DNA of 64,000 nt, taken from assembly GCA_001303785.1 (NCBI GenBank), contig LJUJ01000002.1, positions 3,867-67,866 of the forward strand. The letters are read 5' to 3'. The notes under the pieces are model-generated. The model saw nothing but the letters and a program-made list of their open reading frames with translations, made no database searches and was not told the DNA's origin. The translations under genes were made by a program, and so were the position numbers. This DNA is from a candidate division WOR_3 bacterium SM23_42 (GTDB lineage Bacteria; Hydrothermota; Tepidihabitantia; SM23-42). Below, piece by piece: positions 3,627 to 64,000 of this stretch (position 1 is its first letter; each line of letters starts with the position of its first letter).

Positions 3627-3862
3627 CGGAGGGCCAGCTTATCTCGCATTCCGTTCGCCCTGCGAATTGATTACAGTGATGCAATACAGATATTGTGTTA
3701 TTGGGTCACTATGTCATTTGCATAAAGAGCGAGCTCAGTAAGCCGAGCTCCGAGCTCTAAAGACTGTGGGGTCAGACCTCGAAATTCGAATAACTATGAT
3801 CAAGAATCGTATTTTGGATTAGCTGTGTATGATAGATTATTATTAAAAGGAAAGGACGATTT

Positions 3863-4957
3863 ATGATTAATGAGTACATATCTGTTTCTTTTATTTATCT
3901 TTTGTGCCTTTTTGCTGTTTTCTCTAATGCTCAGGAGTTGAGCGATCCTGAGAAGAATTTCGAGTATCTGTGGAAAGAATTTGACAGGAGATATGCCCTT
4001 TTCCTGCCCAAGCGTATTGATTGGAATCTTCTCTACAGAGTCTACCGGCCCAAGGTTACACCGCAAACAAGTGATGACGAACTGTTCGAAATAATGTCGA
4101 AAATGCTGACGCGCCTGAATGACCTCCATGTTAGGCTTGATTCAAAGAACCCGCCAAGGAGCTTCCGGTCTGGCAAATCTCATGAGGCGGTACTGCAACA
4201 ATTCGGTACGGTTGAGAATTTTATACGTTATTTCAAAGAGCGACCAATAGACAAGAAGTATGTTAAAACAGAACTGCATGAAAGGCACGAAAATATCTTC
4301 GCTTATACGTGGCTGACCGATGATATCGGCTATTTTCATTTCAGTAAATTTAGTGGTGTAGAAAAGAGTTCTGAAATTGTTGATGAGATTGTTGATTATT
4401 TCAAGAATGCGAAGGGTCTTATTATTGATGTCAGAAGAAACGGAGGCGGTGACGATAAGGTTGGTAAGGTGATCGCCGACCGCTTTGCTGATGAAAAGAG
4501 ACTGTATATGACGATACAGGCAAAAAGCGGACCCGGGCACGGTGACTTTGCTGAACCTGTCAGGTGGTATGTTGAGCCTGATGGTCCTATTCAGTTCACA
4601 AACCCGATAATTCTGCTTACCGACTTCACCTCGGGCAGTGCGGCGGAGAATTTTGCGCTTGCCATGCGGGTGCTTCCGCATGCGACCATTGTTGGTGATT
4701 TTACTGCCGGATGTTTTGCCGATGCTGAGGCAGATAAGCTTCCCAATGGATGGTATTTTTCCCTCTCGATAAACATGTTCAAGGATCAAAATGGCATTTG
4801 TTGGGAGGGAATCGGTGTGCCTCCAGATTTGAGAATTGTTAATACAAAAGAGGACGTGGACAATTGTAGAGACAGAGTTCTTGAATTTGCTGTCGAGCTG
4901 ATAAATTCTGGAGCGCGAGGAGGTCAGAAGAAGAAAGAGAATGGAAGTAACTCATAG
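3863..4957 (+). CDS. Peptidase S41 family protein
   Basis: Signal peptide. S41 blocks LIIDVRRNGGG and LTDFTSGSAAE. Confidence 0.75.
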   Translation: MINEYISVSFIYLLCLFAVFSNAQELSDPEKNFEYLWKEFDRRYALFLPKRIDWNLLYRVYRPKVTPQTSDDELFEIMSKMLTRLNDLHVRLDSKNPPRSFRSGKSHEAVLQQFGTVENFIRYFKERPIDKKYVKTELHERHENIFAYTWLTDDIGYFHFSKFSGVEKSSEIVDEIVDYFKNAKGLIIDVRRNGGGDDKVGKVIADRFADEKRLYMTIQAKSGPGHGDFAEPVRWYVEPDGPIQFTNPIILLTDFTSGSAAENFALAMRVLPHATIVGDFTAGCFADAEADKLPNGWYFSLSINMFKDQNGICWEGIGVPPDLRIVNTKEDVDNCRDRVLEFAVELINSGARGGQKKKENGSNS

Positions 4958-19184: not shown

Positions 19185-19312
19185 GGGCAGAAGACCAGAA
19201 TACCAGGATATCAAATAGAAGCTATCATTGGGGTACGAATGGAATCGTTTTTTAAACACGCAGAGACGGAACGTCGGAGGAGCGGAGACGTCAAGCGAAC
19301 TCCGAGCTCCGA
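19185..19312 (+). repeat. ~128-bp intergenic repeat, copy 1 (about 88% identical to 21592..21718)
   Basis: gggcagaagaccagaataccaggatatcaaatagaagctatcattggggtacgaatggaatcg...gcgaactccgagctccg. Lies upstream of lipoprotein 19458. Confidence 0.85.
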
Positions 19313-56911: not shown

Positions 56912-58141
56912 ATGGCTTGCATAGGTGATACCAAGAGGCACGAATTCCTGAGAGATAAGCCGATCAAGCAAAACAGGGAAAGAAAACTGAAAATTCTACG
57001 TGAGTGTATAAAACGATATTGGATGTATTTGCCAAATATTATCTTCCAAGAATTTCGGTTGGTCACTCTAATTGACTATAGATTTTCGAAAAAAAACCTT
57101 GCTTTTTACCCCTTATCAGTAAACCTTGAATTGACTGCGCGGTGTAATCTTAGATGTAAAATGTGTTGGCTTTGGGGAGAACACGGTGTAGGTTACAATC
57201 TCGCGAATGATTTTGCCAGAAATGAGATGAATCTGAATGATATCAGAAAAATAGTGAAAGACTTGAACGGCTTTAAACCTGTTATCCATTTGCAGGGGGG
57301 AGAGATACTGCTTCGGAAAGATATTACTGAAATTATGAAGTACATCGCTTCCTTGAACTTGATATTTGGGTTTACTACTAATGGTACACTGATAACTTCC
57401 CAACTTGCCAAGGAAATTGTAAAATATGCAACGGTTATATCTTTTTCCTTGGATGGTCCGGAGAAAAGACACGATAGATTACGAGGAAAAGGGAATTTTA
57501 AGAGAGCAATTAGCGGATTAGAAAAACTTCTCTCGCAAAGAGACAAATCGCCGCTTCCATTCATTAAGATAAATGTGTTGTGGCAAGAACTCGATCATTC
57601 AGAAATAAGAGAGATGGTCGAAATGGCATCTGAAATGGACGTTGATGCTTTAAAATTTGGGGACCTCCAATTCATAGAGAAAACTAGAGCCGAGATGCAC
57701 AAGAAAGTAATGAAACGGCTATTTGGGATTGACTGCGCAAGCATTGATGGATATATAGGTAATGGATGTTTCGATATTGATGAGTTATGGAATAAATTTC
57801 TGTATTTGAGAAAGATGATGGAGGACAGGCGTAACTTGAAGTGTGACATTTGGAACACTAGTTCAAAGGAAATACTAAAGAAATGGTATTGTGGACGTCC
57901 TTCTGATTCTTATAATTTCTGTTTTTTTCCATGGGTCTCCACGATAATAAGATATAATGGAGATGTCGTGCCTTGTGGAGAATATCGACATCCTGAGTAT
58001 GTTGTAGGAAATGTTAAGCGACAGAGATTTAGAGATATATGGAATAGTCATAGCATGCGTCGATTCAGACAAGTGTTAAAGAAAGTCAGATTCTTCCCGG
58101 GTTGTGACAGATGCTGTGGGCTCCATTCCTATGCGCGGTGA
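56912..58141 (+). CDS. radical SAM/SPASM-domain protein (peptide-modifying-type maturase), start uncertain
   Basis: CNLRCKMC radical-SAM motif. C-terminal SPASM-like Cys cluster PCGEY...FPGCDRCCG. Confidence 0.7.
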   Translation: MACIGDTKRHEFLRDKPIKQNRERKLKILRECIKRYWMYLPNIIFQEFRLVTLIDYRFSKKNLAFYPLSVNLELTARCNLRCKMCWLWGEHGVGYNLANDFARNEMNLNDIRKIVKDLNGFKPVIHLQGGEILLRKDITEIMKYIASLNLIFGFTTNGTLITSQLAKEIVKYATVISFSLDGPEKRHDRLRGKGNFKRAISGLEKLLSQRDKSPLPFIKINVLWQELDHSEIREMVEMASEMDVDALKFGDLQFIEKTRAEMHKKVMKRLFGIDCASIDGYIGNGCFDIDELWNKFLYLRKMMEDRRNLKCDIWNTSSKEILKKWYCGRPSDSYNFCFFPWVSTIIRYNGDVVPCGEYRHPEYVVGNVKRQRFRDIWNSHSMRRFRQVLKKVRFFPGCDRCCGLHSYAR

Positions 58142-58157
58142 ACTGATGGCCTTTGAC

Positions 58158-58215
58158 TGCAACCTGTCGTAGATCCTCCTGGGGGACTATATTCAGTTAA
58201 CTTTCACTGCAGAAT
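58158..58215 (+). repeat. conserved ~55-nt 3' element (cctgtcgtagatcctNctggg.ggactatattc.gttaac...), copy B; other copies at 10775-10830 and 60190-60245
   Basis: Three copies, each starting 15-65 nt after a stop codon, about 80% identical to one another. Confidence 0.7.
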
Positions 58216-58275
58216 AGAACGATATATAAGCATATTTTTGTGTAAGATTTGGTTTTTCATTTCTTTTGTTGACTA

Positions 58276-58303
58276 TTGACAAAGTCCTTTATCTAAATAT
58301 AAT
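58276..58303 (+). promoter_or_regulatory. sigma-70 promoter TTGACA-16-TATAAT (csp)
   Basis: ttgacaaagtcctttatctaaatataat, followed by a roughly 85-nt 5' UTR that is conserved with the 50098-50190 copy. Confidence 0.65.
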
Positions 58304-58389
58304 AATATCGAGTCATTTAGTTTGTTGATGGTTCTGCAGAATGCAATATTCTCGATCCCCTCAATAAATAAAGGCTTGAAAGGAGTAAT

Positions 58390-58593
58390 ATGGTTTACGG
58401 AAACGTAAAGTGGTTTGACAGTAGAAAAGGATTTGGCTTCATCGAGAAAGAAGATGGCAGTGGCGACATATTTGCCCACTACAACGACATTATCGGTGAA
58501 GGGTACCGTACCCTACAAGAGGGTGATCGGGTCAAGTTCGAAATTACTCAATCCCCCAAAGGGGAAAAAGCCACAAAAATAGAGCGTGTATAA
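58390..58593 (+). CDS. cspA: cold-shock protein, CspA family
   Basis: AAAGGAG RBS. RNP1 KGFGFI and RNP2-like VFAHY motifs. 67 aa. Confidence 0.9.
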   Translation: MVYGNVKWFDSRKGFGFIEKEDGSGDIFAHYNDIIGEGYRTLQEGDRVKFEITQSPKGEKATKIERV

Positions 58594-58605
58594 TCATACA
58601 CGGAA

Positions 58606-58635
58606 GGAAGCCCCCGCAAGGGGGCTTCCTTATGT
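58606..58635 (+). terminator. rho-independent terminator
   Basis: ggaagcccccGCAAgggggcttcc followed by T residues. Confidence 0.8.
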
Positions 58636-58691
58636 TAAACAACACAGCAACTCTCTTGACAGATGGACAATTGTCTGTACACTTTATTGAG

Positions 58692-60173
58692 ATGAAGATA
58701 CTACTAGTTTATCCGAAGAACCCGGATACGTTCTGGTCTTTCAAGCACGCCTTAAGATTTGTTTTTAAGAAAGCAACAAATCCGCCGCTTGGGTTGTTGA
58801 CAGTGGCAGCGATGCTACCGGAAGATTGGGAGAGGCGGATGGTCGACATGAATGTGAGTAAGCTCCGAGACCGCGATATCGAATGGTCTGATTATGTTTT
58901 TGTCAGTGCCAGCACCATCCAAAAGCAATCGGTGGCGGAGATTATTAGGCGATGTAAGGCCAAGAATGTACGAATAGTCGCGGGTGGTCCGCTATTCACG
59001 AGTTGCTACGATGAATATGACCATGTTGATCATCTTGTACTCAACGAGGCGGAGATAACTCTGCCGATGTTCTTGAGGGATGTGCGTAAAGGTAAACCGC
59101 GCCACAAGTATACGTCCTCCGAATGGGCGAATCTTAGGGAAACGCCGGTTCCGGATTGGAATTTGCTCAATATTAAAAAGTACGCATCGATGAACATTCA
59201 ATATTCACGAGGATGTCCATTTGATTGCGACTTTTGTGATATTCCGCTTTTATACGGTCATAAGCCGCGCATAAAAGAAAAGGAGCAAATCATTACCGAG
59301 CTGGAGAGTCTTTATAACCATGGTTGGCGGGGCCCAGTCTTCTTTGTGGATGATAATTTCATTGGCAACAAGCTTAGCTTGAAGAGAGATATGCTACCGC
59401 TCATTGCTGAATGGATGGGAAGAATGAAATATCCATTTACATTCTTTACGCAAGCGTCGGTCAATCTCGCGGATGACGAAGAGTTAATGAATCTGATGGT
59501 GCAGGCTGGCTTCCATCAAGTATTTGTTGGTATTGAAACTCCCGAAGAGGAGAGTCTAGCAGAATGCGGCAAGCGGCAAAATAAAAACCGTAATCTTGTC
59601 GAGTGCGTTAAGAAAATACAGAAATTCGGCCTGCAAGTGCAAGGAGGGTTCATAGTTGGTTTTGACAACGACCCTCACACGATTTTCGAAAGGCAGATTC
59701 GTTTCATCCAGAACAGCGGCATAGTCACCGCCATGGTTGGTCTGCTTAATGCGGTACGCGGTACGAAACTCTACAAACGGTTGAAAAAGGAGAACCGGTT
59801 GTTGACTGATGCATCGGGTGACAACACCGACTGTTCGATTAACTTCATTCCCAGGATGAGCTACTCGACGCTCATGGAGGGGTATAGAAACATCGTCAGG
59901 ACTATTTACGATCCTGATCAATTCTATGCAAGGGTTAAGGGATTCCTGAAAAACTACAAGCCTGTGCATCAGAGTCTATCACGTGTTAGTTTCACCGAGG
60001 TGAAGGCGTTCATCATGTCCATTTTCGTTTTAGGTATAAAGGAAAAAGAACGATTTCATTACTGGCGGCTGTTTTTATGGAGCGTTTTCAATCGTCCACG
60101 CCTCGCACCCCTTGCCGTAACTTTTGCAATCTACGGCTTTCATTTCAGAAAAGTCTTCGAGCGAATGGCATAA
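58692..60173 (+). CDS. B12-binding-domain radical SAM protein (class B-type)
   Basis: N-terminal cobalamin-binding Rossmann-like block (KILLVYP...PLGLLTVAAML). Radical-SAM motif CPFDCDFC. I moved the start to 58692 because the ORF opened inside the csp terminator. Confidence 0.75.
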   Translation: MKILLVYPKNPDTFWSFKHALRFVFKKATNPPLGLLTVAAMLPEDWERRMVDMNVSKLRDRDIEWSDYVFVSASTIQKQSVAEIIRRCKAKNVRIVAGGPLFTSCYDEYDHVDHLVLNEAEITLPMFLRDVRKGKPRHKYTSSEWANLRETPVPDWNLLNIKKYASMNIQYSRGCPFDCDFCDIPLLYGHKPRIKEKEQIITELESLYNHGWRGPVFFVDDNFIGNKLSLKRDMLPLIAEWMGRMKYPFTFFTQASVNLADDEELMNLMVQAGFHQVFVGIETPEEESLAECGKRQNKNRNLVECVKKIQKFGLQVQGGFIVGFDNDPHTIFERQIRFIQNSGIVTAMVGLLNAVRGTKLYKRLKKENRLLTDASGDNTDCSINFIPRMSYSTLMEGYRNIVRTIYDPDQFYARVKGFLKNYKPVHQSLSRVSFTEVKAFIMSIFVLGIKEKERFHYWRLFLWSVFNRPRLAPLAVTFAIYGFHFRKVFERMA

Positions 60174-60851: not shown

Positions 60852-61295
60852 ATGGGAAGCAAAAAAATCGGTATTATCATCTGCCAGCGTTATGGAACCT
60901 GTGCTGGTGGAAAATGTTTCAGGGCATTGCGTAATAGAGAAGGTGCATTTGATATATATAAATCACAAGATGTAGAAGTCGTAGGGTACACGACTTGCGA
61001 TGGTTGCCCTGGTGGAAATATCGAGTATGCGCCTGAAGAAATGAAGAAGAACGGCGCATCGGTTGTTCACTTTGCCACCGGCATGGTCGTGGGTTATCCA
61101 CCGTGCCCGTACATTTCTCACTTCCGAGATTTTATCAAGGAAAGATACGACATGGAAGTTGTAGTGGGTACGCATCCGATTCCCCAAAAATACTATGTCG
61201 TACATTCCACATTGGGGACATGGAATACTCCACAGTGGCAACAATTAATAAGACCCAGTTTAGCAGACGAGAAGATTCGTTTGGCCTACGATTAA
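60852..61295 (+). CDS. CGGC-domain protein
   Basis: CAGGAGG RBS. Motif TTCDGCPGG plus a conserved Cys pattern. Confidence 0.65.
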   Translation: MGSKKIGIIICQRYGTCAGGKCFRALRNREGAFDIYKSQDVEVVGYTTCDGCPGGNIEYAPEEMKKNGASVVHFATGMVVGYPPCPYISHFRDFIKERYDMEVVVGTHPIPQKYYVVHSTLGTWNTPQWQQLIRPSLADEKIRLAYD

Positions 61296-61335: not shown

Positions 61336-62450
61336 ATGAATGAAGATTGGCGGGCCTCCAAAAGGGTGCAGCAGATAAAAAAATCCGCAATTCACGAGAT
61401 GACTAGGTTGTCCAAGAGTATTGAGGATGTTGCATTTCTATCTTGGGCAAAGCCCACGTCGAATACGCCGGACCACATTAAAAAGGCAGCTGTTAAGGCG
61501 ATCGAACAAGAATTAGTTGGCGGGTACTCAGCGACGAACGGAATACCAGAACTGAGGGAGGAAGTCAGCAAGAAACTCAAGAGAGACAATAAGATCGAGG
61601 CCAAGGCATCGGAAATCATAATCACGGTAGGCGCGATTGAAGGCTTAGCAGCGGCGCTCATGAGTGTTGTCGACCCCGGAGAGGAGGTAATCTTGCCATC
61701 GCCTACATATTCTACTCACATTCGACAAGTTCTTATTGCCTCGGGTAAACCAGTTTTCGTGCCGACAATTGAAGAGCAGGGTTTCTCCCTCGACGTTGAT
61801 AGAATTAGAAAGGCGATTACAAATAAAACGCACAGCTTCGGCGACTGGCTGACGTGGCCCTTGAGTACAATATTATGATCATAACTGATGAAGCATATGA
61901 ATATTTTGTTTATGATGGCAACACGCATTTTAGCATTGCATCAATTGTAGAGATGAAAAAGAACGTGATAAGTTGTTTCACCTTTACAAAAACTTACGCC
62001 ATGACCGGTTGGCGGATTGGATACTTGCATGCGGATGAGAGTCTAGTCCCGCAGATTGAGAAATCACATATCCCTTTTGCGATCTGCGCACCCGTAGTAT
62101 CGCAGTATGCTGCACTTGCTGCGCTTAAGGGTTCGCAGGAATGCGTTAAGAAATTCCGCAAGCACTACTTATCTACAAGGAATTTAATGTGCGAGCGTTT
62201 GGATCGACTGCATACATATTTTGCGTATCATAAACCCCAGGGTTCTTATCTGATGTTTCCCAAAATACTGACTGCCGAGGGTAGTGATTCGGCGAAATTT
62301 TGCATAGATCTTTTGCAGGATGCAAAAGTTTCAACAACTCCAGGTGTTGCCTTTGGTCCAACCGGTGAAGGACATCTAAGGCTATCCTTTTGTGTACCTC
62401 ACGATATGGTCAATAAGGCTTTTGATAGAATAGAAAGATATTTGAAATAG
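61336..62450 (+). pseudogene. class I/II aminotransferase (aspartate aminotransferase-like) split by an internal deletion/frameshift near 61830
   Basis: ORFs 61336..61878 and 61854..62450 are in different frames. The join lacks the expected ~18-aa NSPxNPTG segment. The PLP-Lys region (FTKTYAMTGWRIGY) is intact. Confidence 0.6.
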
Positions 62451-62477: not shown

Positions 62478-62505
62478 TTGACAAATTGGAAATTTTCATT
62501 ATAAT
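62478..62505 (+). promoter_or_regulatory. sigma-70 promoter TTGACA-16-TATAAT with adjacent Fur-box-like palindrome
   Basis: ttgacaaattggaaattttcattataat, then the inverted repeat AATGG-AAA-CCATT. Confidence 0.55.
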
Positions 62506-62540
62506 GATAATGGAAACCATTTTCAATAGCAATGGAGTGA

Positions 62541-63020
62541 ATGAAAATGCCAAGAAGAGATCATATGGGACCCCCATGGTGGCACGGTAGATTCCGGGGA
62601 CATGGCTACAGGATCACGGTAGCACGAGAAGCAATCCTGGATGTGTTGAGCCAAACAGAGGAACATCTGAGTGCTGAGGACGTATATCTCACCGTCCATA
62701 AGAGCTATCCAAATGTTGGGCTGACAACGGTTTATCGAACCCTGGAACTGCTCGTTCACATTGGGCTCGTCTTCAAGTTTGATTTTGGCGATGGTAGAGC
62801 AAGGTACGAGCTATCTGAAGGACCCAAGGGTACTAGGCACCATCATCATCTCGTTTGCACTAACTGCGGTCGCGTGATTGATTATACGGATTTCATTGAC
62901 GACGAGATCGAATTGCTCGGTCGGGCTGAGAAGGGTCTTTCTGACAAATTCAATTTCAGGATCACAAATCATCTTATTCAGTTTTATGGATTGTGTGATC
63001 GCTGCCAGAAGAAAACATGA
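62541..63020 (+). CDS. Fur-family metalloregulator with N-terminal MPRRDHMGP extension
   Basis: Fur blocks GYRITVAREAILDVL, HHHHLVCTNCG, CDRC. An alternative start at ATG 62547 gives MPRRD... Confidence 0.7.
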   Translation: MKMPRRDHMGPPWWHGRFRGHGYRITVAREAILDVLSQTEEHLSAEDVYLTVHKSYPNVGLTTVYRTLELLVHIGLVFKFDFGDGRARYELSEGPKGTRHHHHLVCTNCGRVIDYTDFIDDEIELLGRAEKGLSDKFNFRITNHLIQFYGLCDRCQKKT

Positions 63021-63083
63021 TCATGATTTTTTTATTCTTATATGAAAATGGTTATCATTTACAATAATAAGGAGGTGATTTAA

Positions 63084-63473
63084 ATGCCAGGTGGAGATAG
63101 AACAGGACCTCTTGGAGCTGGACCCATGACTGGACGAGGTGCCGGCTATTGTGCTGGTTATCCAGTGCCAGGATATGCTAATCCGTTTGCGGGTCGAGGC
63201 TGGTTTGGTCGTGGCCGTGGTTTTGGTCGCGGTCGTGGTTGGTTTGGTCGTGGCTGGCGACATTGGTACGGACCGGGTTGGGTTCCATATGGGTATGGTG
63301 ACCCGTATTACGGTGCTTATGCTTATCCAACACACCCCTATGCGCCGGAACTAACGCCGGTTGAGGAAATGAATATGCTTAAGGAAGAATCCAAGGTCTT
63401 GCAGAATCAATTAAAGGAAATACAGGAACGCATCGGGACTTTGGAAAAAGCTCAAGCACAAGAGAAAAAATAG
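63084..63473 (+). CDS. DUF5320-like Gly/Arg/Tyr-rich protein with C-terminal coiled coil
   Basis: AAGGAGG RBS. N-terminal MPGGDRTGPLGAGPMTGRGAGYCAGY, low-complexity GRG repeats, and a C-terminal heptad region. Confidence 0.55.
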   Translation: MPGGDRTGPLGAGPMTGRGAGYCAGYPVPGYANPFAGRGWFGRGRGFGRGRGWFGRGWRHWYGPGWVPYGYGDPYYGAYAYPTHPYAPELTPVEEMNMLKEESKVLQNQLKEIQERIGTLEKAQAQEKK

Positions 63474-63552
63474 AAAAGTGAATGGGAGCAGGTGCGCGTT
63501 TATACTGCTCCCGTTCCCGGATTTTGGTTGAATGCAAGAAGGAGGAATGCCC

Positions 63553-63951
63553 ATGCGCGTAGCAATATCAACAGACGGTGATTTGGTGTCGCCTCATTTT
63601 GGACGATGTCCGACTTTTACCATTGTCGATATTGAGAACGGTGAAATCGTAAGACAAGAAACGCTGGAGAACCCGGGTCATCAACCCGGCTTCATACCAC
63701 AATTTTTGCACCAGAAGGGCGTTGAATGCATTGTATGCGGTGGTATGGGAAGACGGGCTACAGGATTTTTCAGTGAATACGGAATACAGACGATCTTAGG
63801 TGTTGCGGGAAGAGTAGACGAGGTGCTGGAGAAAATCCAGAAGGGTACACTGGAAGGCGGAGAGAGTCTTTGCAAACCAGGTTCAGGAAAAGGCTACGGA
63901 TTAGACAAGACCGAATGTGATCATCCTGAGGGACATGAAGGTAAGCATTAA
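63553..63951 (+). CDS. NifX/NifB-like (dinitrogenase FeMo-cofactor family, PF02579-type) small protein
   Basis: GAAGGAGG RBS. Blocks MRVAISTDG..VSPHFGRCPTFTIVD and CIVCGGMGRRA. Confidence 0.7.
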   Translation: MRVAISTDGDLVSPHFGRCPTFTIVDIENGEIVRQETLENPGHQPGFIPQFLHQKGVECIVCGGMGRRATGFFSEYGIQTILGVAGRVDEVLEKIQKGTLEGGESLCKPGSGKGYGLDKTECDHPEGHEGKH

Positions 63952-63964
63952 GGAGAAGACCAAA

Positions 63965-64000
63965 ATGAAGATATGCATAACATCACAAGGGAATAATTTA
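63965..64000 (+). CDS. 3'-truncated CDS (MKICITSQG..., possibly a second NifX-like protein)
   Basis: AAGGAGAAG RBS. Only 12 codons lie inside the window. Confidence 0.3.
   Translation, partial: MKICITSQGNNL

Follow-up and report, generated by a model that had tools for sequence, protein, structure and literature searches.

Gene content of the locus

We examined a 64 000-nucleotide stretch (the window; position 1 is its first letter) of contig LJUJ01000002.1 from the candidate division WOR-3 bacterium SM23_42, at whose downstream end a gene for a Fur-family repressor is followed by a DUF5320 gene and two genes for NifX-like (Nitro_FeMo-Co, IPR003731) proteins (Table 1). The Fur open reading frame spans 62541/62547–63020 and reads (MK)MPRRDHMGPPWWHGRFRGHGYRIT; the ATG at 62547 is the likely start, and a better one than 62541, because a GGAG lies 9 nt before it and homologues begin with Met-Pro. 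For genes beyond the window end we used sibling contigs from the same organism (167–199 kb), in which the order continues with the second NifX-like gene (complete there, 122 residues at L002 11419–11787, PF02579 86 bits), a 74-residue protein, two CbiA/MinD-type ATPases and a Zn-ribbon protein. Both ATPases carry a 4Fe-4S ferredoxin insert (L002 12039–12908 and 12901–13791 match CbiA, ParA and Fer4), and the 74-residue protein, which has four cysteines (4-Cys), starts MPRGDGTGPSGQGPGGGRGQGRG... and ends in a CxC..C/C..C ribbon. A preliminary description of this DNA, made from its letters alone, had counted one or two NifX-like genes after DUF5320; there are two.

The cluster as a whole is an operon resembling that of the Desulfovibrio orange-protein (ORP) complex, with fur as its first gene, followed by DUF5320, two NifX-like genes, the 4-Cys gene and two MinD/ParA-type ATPase genes. 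The DUF5320 assignment is firm by the family model (PF17253, 89.4 bits against a cut-off of 27, residues 1–119). The protein is laid out as an N-terminal tag module (residues 1–23), a disordered Gly/Arg/aromatic region (residues 24–88, with 17 Gly, 19 aromatic, 7 cationic and 9 Pro among its 65 residues) and a long C-terminal helix (residues 92–128). In the AlphaFold2 model, residues 1 to about 88 are disordered and residues 92–128 form a single long helix with a predicted local distance difference test (pLDDT) score above 90.

A nine-residue tag shared by Fur and its neighbours

The preliminary description also reported that the Fur protein and its DUF5320 neighbour begin with a common motif. 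The sequences read as it stated, and the likeness is stronger across the family than in the window. Among the matches listed, 120 Fur relatives (76–92% identity; WOR-3 and Omnitrophota) all keep the unusual N-terminus, and 72 further N-termini came from 83 related loci, namely 80 loci from a metagenome scan (63–88% identity) and L125–L127. The Fur logo, built on 136 distinct sequences, reads M, P (81%), R/G, G/R, N/D, G/C, M/T, G (94%), P/Q, P, W, W, H, G, R/K, F, R, G, C (76%), G, Y, R, x, T, with P9 kept in 74% of relatives, and gives the consensus MPRG(N/D)G(M/T)GP-PWWHGRFRGCGYR. The DUF5320 neighbours of these Furs, which entered their profile by position beside fur and not by motif, read M-P-G/R-F/G-D-G-T-G-P-x-G-x-G-P-M-T-G-R/G-x-x-G-Y/F-C. 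Taking the tag as M-P-[RG]-[GF]-D-[GR]-T-G-P directly after the start codon, the Fur consensus agrees with MPRGDGTGP at nine of nine leading positions, and several Fur relatives carry the exact nonamer; in the window copy, MPRRDHMGP, six of the nine residues (M, P, R, D, G and P) remain. The motif is a genuine shared module that extends beyond the Met-Pro start. The 74-residue 4-Cys protein is tagged as well, so that three proteins of one operon (Fur, DUF5320 and 4-Cys) bear the tag.

Two Gly/Arg/Pro-rich N-termini might resemble each other by chance, and the profile methods would allow this. The profile–profile comparison by which the preliminary description had proposed to judge the similarity did not reach significance, hhalign of the 24- against the 26-column N-terminal profile giving P = 0.11 with only MP..GP aligned, and the Pfam DUF5320 model gave nine sub-threshold matches among 86 Fur relatives (best E 0.094), with none for the window protein. 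Because profile tools have little power on 9–22 residues, hhalign was replaced by an exact test with a position-specific scoring matrix for positions 2–9, built from the unselected DUF5320 neighbours. It returned p = 2e-5 against a general background and 6e-4 against the protein's own composition for the window Fur, and 6e-10 and 1e-7 (composition-matched), respectively, for the best Fur relative. Given also the exact nonamer in several relatives and the full agreement of the consensus, and given that, among the matches listed, the only exact nonamers outside tagged families are six out-of-frame Streptomyces sites, themselves taken as chance, we regard coincidence as a most improbable explanation.

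The nine-residue tag is all that Fur has in common with DUF5320, and it does not belong to that family. A further 'RG.GY' likeness between the two proteins may be coincidental and was not counted, because it overlaps the canonical Fur pattern G-x-[KR]-x-T, of which G20, R22 and T24 are part; in the structure alignment RGHGYRIT pairs with AASYKLT and RQGGLKYT of solved proteins. At the conserved Fur positions P2, G8 and P9 synonymous codons vary, so that selection acts on the protein, and a nucleotide-level origin of the conservation (a shared translation-initiation region or RNA element) is ruled out by the same variation. Recent gene conversion from the neighbouring gene is likewise ruled out, since the 5' ends of fur and DUF5320 share only 18 of 27 nt.

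The tag in other protein families

The tag is strictly N-terminal and is shared across protein families. In six-frame translations of all loci its core occurs 248 times right after a start codon and twice internally (about half of the cases having been selected with ATG by design). A scan for DNA encoding MPRGDGTGP, which covered one genome per species and whose counts are therefore samples, found at least 127 sites in at least 120 stretches, spread among the matches listed over many anaerobic bacterial phyla and archaea. These matches include 52 four-Cys ribbon proteins, at least 38 DUF5320-type proteins, three ferredoxins and about 12 low-complexity proteins. In all, the tag heads five architectures, and the tagged domains are largely Cys-rich binders of metals or clusters: the 4-Cys ribbon, a 2×[4Fe-4S] ferredoxin, Fur, and DUF5320 with its conserved Cys. 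The Pfam DUF5320 model matches the module heading one ferredoxin (35.9 bits, residues 1–37).

The 37-residue DUF5320 module is also very widespread, occurring in 2396 clusters at 50% identity (E ≤ 1e-3) among 1.84 billion representatives. When new fusions were sought with it in the same set, the best 150 matches were all DUF5320; one of them includes an Mrp-like fragment, perhaps an artefact. Some DUF5320 proteins (P0121–P0126, P0129, P0131 and others) contain two tag modules in tandem, the second following '..KEVI(I/K)M', which is a translated ribosome-binding site (AAGGAGGTGAT); by their sequence these are apparently two adjacent tagged genes fused in frame, or called as one. Docking motifs are usually disordered, and AlphaFold2 predicts the tag to be disordered in both Fur (residues 1–7) and DUF5320. 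The motif strings were absent from the searchable literature, and searches for DUF5320 there returned unrelated papers only; within that literature, both the tag as a cross-family module and its presence on a regulator appear undescribed.

Conserved gene order

Among the 63 metagenome loci with at least 500 bp of sequence downstream of fur, 53 have DUF5320 within 200 bp. The pair is followed by NifX-like genes, usually the tagged 4-Cys gene, and then a MinD-Fer4 pair. The cluster is the same in the sibling contigs and in Omnitrophota-type contigs, and Atribacterota loci show the same order with the variant MPGRWGKGPAKWWHGEFRGCGYR. Across all loci a NifX-like gene is the commonest follower of DUF5320 (69 of 127 cases), and the 4-Cys gene is followed by MinD-Fer4 in 20 cases and by DUF5320 in 25; tagged genes adjoin both NifX-like and MinD-Fer4 genes across phyla.

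Promoter and operators

Phylogenetic footprinting showed the layout of TTGACA...TATAAT, operator and AAGGAG to be kept in almost every related locus. Inside operator 1 lies the palindrome AATGG-AAA-CCATT (62509–62521) that the preliminary description had described as overlapping the -10 region; it is present as described, but begins 3 nt downstream of the promoter, and so abuts the -10 and covers the start region. By direct count, 15 of the 19 positions of the surrounding 19-mer, GATAATGGAAACCATTTTC (62506–62524), agree with the classical Fur box. A search for the classical 19-bp Fur box at up to three mismatches found none, consistent with the four mismatches of operator 1, and the operator centre (GGAAACC) differs from that of the classical box.

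An operator site (at most three mismatches to AATGRAAAYSATTTTCA) is present in 62 of 66 related fur upstream regions, and a sister operator in 51 of 53 fur–DUF5320 spacers, where it had been suggested that the palindrome be sought. Each spacer reads as a T-run, a 7-1-7 operator (consensus AATGAAAATGATTTTCATTAAC) and a ribosome-binding site. Elsewhere in 434 kb there are only six matches at up to two mismatches, four of them in two loci with a CGGC gene between operator and fur. Within the window, operators 1 and 2 are the only strong sites, and both predicted sites have the inverted-repeat (7-1-7) form that marks Fur-family regulation. Because these candidate sites are so conserved, autoregulation, as first proposed from the palindrome alone, and control of the downstream operon are both well supported. 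Neither a terminator stem at the T7 run nor a promoter or terminator at operator 2 was predicted; operator 2 may belong to an internal promoter.

Three weaker operator-like matches in the window (19238, 21645 and 36796) have three mismatches each and fall within chance expectation. The first two are near-identical 17-mers, AATGGAATCG(T/C)TTTTTA, at 19238–19254 and 21645–21661, 2.4 kb apart, and probably belong to repeated sequence or paralogous genes.

Table 1. Features of the fur–DUF5320 locus (window positions).
Feature	Position	Strand	Remarks
sigma-70-type fur promoter	62478–62505	+	TTGACA 62478–62483, 16-nt spacer, TATAAT 62500–62505; 12/12 consensus
Operator 1 (predicted), AATGGAAACCATTTTCA	62509–62525	+	0 mismatches to family consensus AATGRAAAYSATTTTCA
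Ribosome-binding site GGAG	62534–62537	+	9 nt ahead of ATG 62547; AAGGAG kept there in related loci
Fur-family repressor gene, 157 residues	62547–63020	+	PF01475, 111 bits; non-canonical N-terminus
N-terminal tag, residues 1–9 (MPRRDHMGP)	62547–62573	+	diverged copy of MPRGDGTGP
Fur residues 10–17 (PWWHGRFR)	62574–62597	+	W11 and W12 invariant; with tag replaces helix alpha1
T7 run	63027–63033	+	just past fur stop, before operator 2; 7 or more T in nearly all loci (L125–L207)
Operator 2 (predicted), 7-1-7 core TGAAAAT-G-GTTATCA (63043–63057)	63041–63059		minus strand reads AATGATAACCATTTTCA, 1 mismatch to consensus
DUF5320 gene, 129 residues	63084–63473	+	PF17253, 89 bits; starts MPGGDRTGPLGAGPMTGRGAGYC
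Nitro_FeMo-Co (NifX-like, IPR003731) protein 1	63553–63951	+	PF02579, 83 bits; start as in sibling contigs
Nitro_FeMo-Co protein 2, start	63965–64000	+	runs past window end; complete in sibling contigs

A specialised Fur paralogue

The window protein, which is 100% identical to a database protein of SM23_42, matches the Fur family model PF01475 over residues 22–149 (111.2 bits, cut-off 23.1) and 20 solved Fur, PerR or Zur chains at E ≤ 1e-10. It falls below every NCBIfam equivalog cut-off, scoring 136 versus 220 for Bacillus-type Fur, 96.6 versus 180 for PerR and 40.6 versus 167 for Zur. Residues C104, C107, C150, C153, H98–H101 (HHHH), H40, E88, D112 and H142 are invariant in 86 relatives, from which the structural Zn site (two CxxC pairs) and the His-rich regulatory site would both be kept, the allotment of residues to sites following homology. 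Compared with Bacillus-type Fur and PerR (structures such as 9ire and 2fe3), the protein has the same fold and shares all metal-ligand positions; those regulators likewise have a 7-1-7 AT-rich operator overlapping the promoter, and autoregulation, the sites in the window being predicted ones. They differ in that the window protein has, in place of helix alpha1, a tagged and largely disordered segment of 17 residues, and in that its local targets form an ORP-like operon, whereas canonical Fur governs iron-uptake genes.

The replacement of alpha1 follows from the homology to solved Fur and PerR structures, which begins only at residue 17–18; residues 1–17 are non-homologous. Bacillus-type Fur is shorter by only some four residues in this part. 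In the AlphaFold2 prediction (with an 86-sequence alignment), residues 1–7 have a pLDDT below 50 and a normal Fur fold follows, with a four-residue helix (13–16) around WWHGRF at moderate confidence. The two halves of the segment may do different jobs, since W11 and W12 are invariant while the tag positions vary.

One possibility is that the segment is a DNA-contacting arm, taking over from alpha1 and suited to the unusual operator, with the basic and aromatic residues of WWHGRFR touching DNA; its similarity to DUF5320 would in that case stem from an RGG-like habit of binding nucleic acids common to both, or mean nothing. The segment does occupy the place of alpha1 in the DNA-binding domain, W11, W12, R15/K and R17 are invariant or nearly so where the tag part varies, and the operator centre, GGAAACC, is not that of the classical box; Arg/Gly-rich tails, moreover, bind nucleic acids in many systems. 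Such an arm would nevertheless leave unexplained both the convergence of residues 1–9 on a tag carried by neighbours that do not bind DNA (the ferredoxin and the 4-Cys ribbon) and the strict N-terminal position of that tag, and residues 1–7, for which disorder is predicted, are not basic but acidic or neutral. We therefore consider a DNA arm unlikely.

The tagged Fur is a specialised paralogue, as contig L125 (Omnitrophota-type) encodes, besides its tagged Fur, a canonical 141-residue Fur at feoAB. On that contig (1612–4849) the canonical Fur gene precedes feoB and a DtxR/FeoA-like gene, and all three lie a few kb upstream of the gene for the tagged Fur. In the window the paralogue is the first gene of, and is dedicated to, the ORP-like operon, and the tag that it shares with other products of the operon suggests, though it does not prove, a physical link between the regulator and the proteins under its control.

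In one clade (L156–L203, e.g. MPRGNCQGQGWWHGKFRGCGYR) the segment carries Cys6 in addition to the common Cys19, where the window protein has His at both positions; four of the five His19 sequences also have His within positions 5–8, in a sample that is small and made up of related sequences. By this pattern, Cys or His at residues 6 and 19 could serve as extra metal or cluster ligands in the N-terminal segment.

Likeness to the ORP complex

In Desulfovibrio vulgaris the ORP complex includes the MinD-like Orp3 and Orp4, with two [4Fe-4S] motifs, the Nitro_FeMo-Co protein Orp8 and a small Fe-S protein, Orp5 (PMC6345978). The cluster described here has parts in common with it, namely two MinD-type ATPases with two [4Fe-4S] motifs each and small Nitro_FeMo-Co proteins; in both systems a small Cys-rich protein is encoded just upstream of the ATPases, and both are confined to anaerobes. 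The differences lie in regulation and arrangement. The D. vulgaris genes form two divergent operons under sigma54 and the activator OrpR (PMC6345978, PMC8359166), whereas here there is a single operon with a Fur paralogue behind a sigma70-type promoter. A fusion of the MrpORP type, in which an Mrp/NBP35 domain is joined to a Nitro_FeMo-Co domain, was not found in the cluster (31–95 bits against a cut-off of 450). By gene order, Orp7 might correspond to DUF5320 and Orp5 to the tagged 4-Cys protein.

The Desulfovibrionaceae locus L032 was tried as a bridge to Orp7 and Orp5 and set aside, since its cluster is of another kind and combines a DUF134-NifX fusion with DUF5320, two DUF364 genes and a CGGC gene. 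In this locus, from Solidesulfovibrio alcoholivorans, the gene at 3780–4517 fuses DUF134, a putative regulator, to Nitro_FeMo-Co and immediately precedes DUF5320, after which come two DUF364/DUF4213 'heavy-metal chelation' genes and the CGGC gene; the fusion is another regulator physically joined to the system.

What the tag may do

The preliminary description had proposed a metal-binding, sensing or degron role for the shared module, which our analysis did not support. We favour a reading in which the tag is a docking or client peptide and the repressor is a client of the machinery that it represses, by analogy with IscR, itself a client of the Isc machinery that IscR represses. The reason is that most of the tagged domains are rich in Cys and bind metals or clusters, and that, in D. 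vulgaris, MrpORP transfers clusters to Orp3 and Orp4 (PMC6345978). In such a loop the metallated Fur paralogue would repress both promoters, and its tag would be read by a common cluster partner, be it the MinD/Mrp-type Fe-S ATPases or the NifX-like carriers; whenever the machinery had capacity to spare, active repressor would form and the operon would be shut down. We rate this client loop at somewhat less than an even chance. Its fuller form is more tentative, and we would not be surprised to see it fail: that MPRGDGTGP may be a client tag, or else an ATPase-activating peptide, of an anaerobe-specific ORP-type machinery (MinD/Mrp-like Fe-S ATPases and NifX-like carriers), marking small Cys-rich proteins for cluster loading or assembly, and that the Fur paralogue may have exchanged alpha1 for this tag so that its DNA binding reports the state of the machinery, an IscR-like loop on a Fur scaffold. 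In the Cys6/Cys19 clades (His6/His19 in the window) a cluster or metal may even be ligated by the dimer's own N-terminal segments.

Precedents for the separate elements exist. In the isc system, too, the regulator is the first gene of its operon and represses it, but IscR has an Rrf2 fold and no shared N-terminal tag; the analogy with the Fur paralogue concerns mechanism only. In eukaryotes the LYR motif (with HSC20) and the C-terminal LDW (with the cytosolic iron-sulfur assembly, or CIA, targeting complex) guide Fe-S delivery; partners of ParA/MinD proteins (ParB, ParG, PomX and McdB) act via basic N-terminal peptides, and the MinD-like FleN binds the regulator FleQ. As is proposed for the tag, the LYR, LDW and ParA/MinD-partner peptides are short, disordered and terminal, occur on unrelated clients and are encoded beside Mrp/NBP35- or MinD-like ATPases; their sequences are unrelated to it.

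Several observations weigh against the client reading, in addition to the hhalign and Pfam results given above. The neighbourhood does not separate NifX-like from MinD-type proteins as the partner of the tag, and a classical Fe(II)-Fur would shut down an Fe-S-rich operon just when iron abounds, the sense of which is not obvious. The tag is also much less conserved in Fur than in DUF5320 (D5 25% versus 96%, T7 29% versus 96%), and in the window's clade it is decaying (MMRHNMGPP, MRRHDMGPP) while WWHGRFR is invariant, so that there it could be a relic.

In its general form, this last alternative supposes that fur acquired, in an ancestor, the 5' end of a tagged gene beside it, and that the tag, now without function in Fur, has since been drifting, with only WWHGRFR, the new substitute for alpha1, functional. 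It accords with the degeneracy of the tag in Fur, above all in the window's clade, and with the tagged gene that always lies next downstream; any exchange of 5' ends would have to be old, since those of fur and DUF5320 agree, by direct count, at only two-thirds of the positions compared. A drifting relic does not sit well, however, with the retention of M1, P2 (81%), G8 (94%) and P9 (74%) across lineages of 63–90% identity in at least three phyla, with the clades that keep the exact nonamer, or with the varying synonymous codons at P2, G8 and P9, where the residues are kept and selection on the protein is indicated. For the family as a whole we think a relic improbable; for the window's own clade it is plausible.

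The composition of DUF5320 suggests another possibility. IssA of Pyrococcus furiosus combines an IPR003731 domain with a disordered Gly/aromatic/cationic tail that binds thioferrate and contains 15 Gly, 14 aromatic, 7 cationic and 11 Pro residues in 70 (PMC5524996). The disordered region of DUF5320 has nearly the same Gly, aromatic, cationic and Pro make-up, to which DUF5320 adds the N-terminal tag and the coiled-coil helix; the two genes that follow it encode proteins with an IPR003731 domain, as IssA has, a NifX-like gene is its commonest follower, and Trp, Arg, Gly and His abound in Fur residues 10–19. An anionic iron-sulfur polymer or metal-sulfide cluster, carried by the NifX-like domains, might thus be bound by the Gly/Arg/aromatic stretches of DUF5320 and by their smaller equivalent at the Fur N-terminus, and Fur would sense the stored species directly. 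We hold this to be doubtful. Domain and tail form one chain in IssA but are split here, the NifX-like proteins having no such tail and the separate DUF5320 carrying the tail-like region; the shared MPRGDGTGP is neither cationic nor aromatic, and the tails of the tagged 4-Cys proteins have no aromatic residues. Furthermore, an Fe(II)-loaded Fur would switch the store off at plentiful iron, unless it acts as the apo form.

The tag and the two defined operators offer a handle on the function of the ORP complex and of the very widespread DUF5320 family in anaerobes: a single tag peptide could be used to fish for the common partner, and a single regulator to find the signal. Should the tag serve in client recognition, prokaryotes would have their own counterpart of the eukaryotic LYR and LDW motifs of Fe-S delivery, and a Fur-family sensor would be wired to its regulon in a way not seen before.

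Upstream genes

The preliminary description placed a CGGC-domain gene and a decayed aminotransferase gene upstream of fur. Both genes are there, but they are not core members of the cluster, because the upstream genes differ between lineages, and the picture of decay did not hold. Compared with the sibling contigs L002 and L003, the aminotransferase region (61336–62450) differs solely by a 55-nt deletion at 61829/61830, and an intact gene of 389 residues is present in the same population; the split is a deletion-prone site or an assembly variant rather than general gene decay. Contig L001 has a different, in-frame deletion of 69 nt at the same spot.

CGGC genes recur beside DUF5320 or tagged clusters in unrelated lineages (window 60852–61295; L135 938–1306; L141 4310–4678; L032 504–902 and 2516–3289; L049 2684–3196), and in L135 and L141 the CGGC gene lies between a Fur-box operator and fur. 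The CGGC gene may be an optional member of the regulon. Farther upstream in the window (56912–60173) are genes for a radical SAM/SPASM protein, a cold-shock-domain protein and a B12-binding radical SAM protein with DUF4070, all kept in the sibling contigs, the last of which also has a weak match to DUF364.

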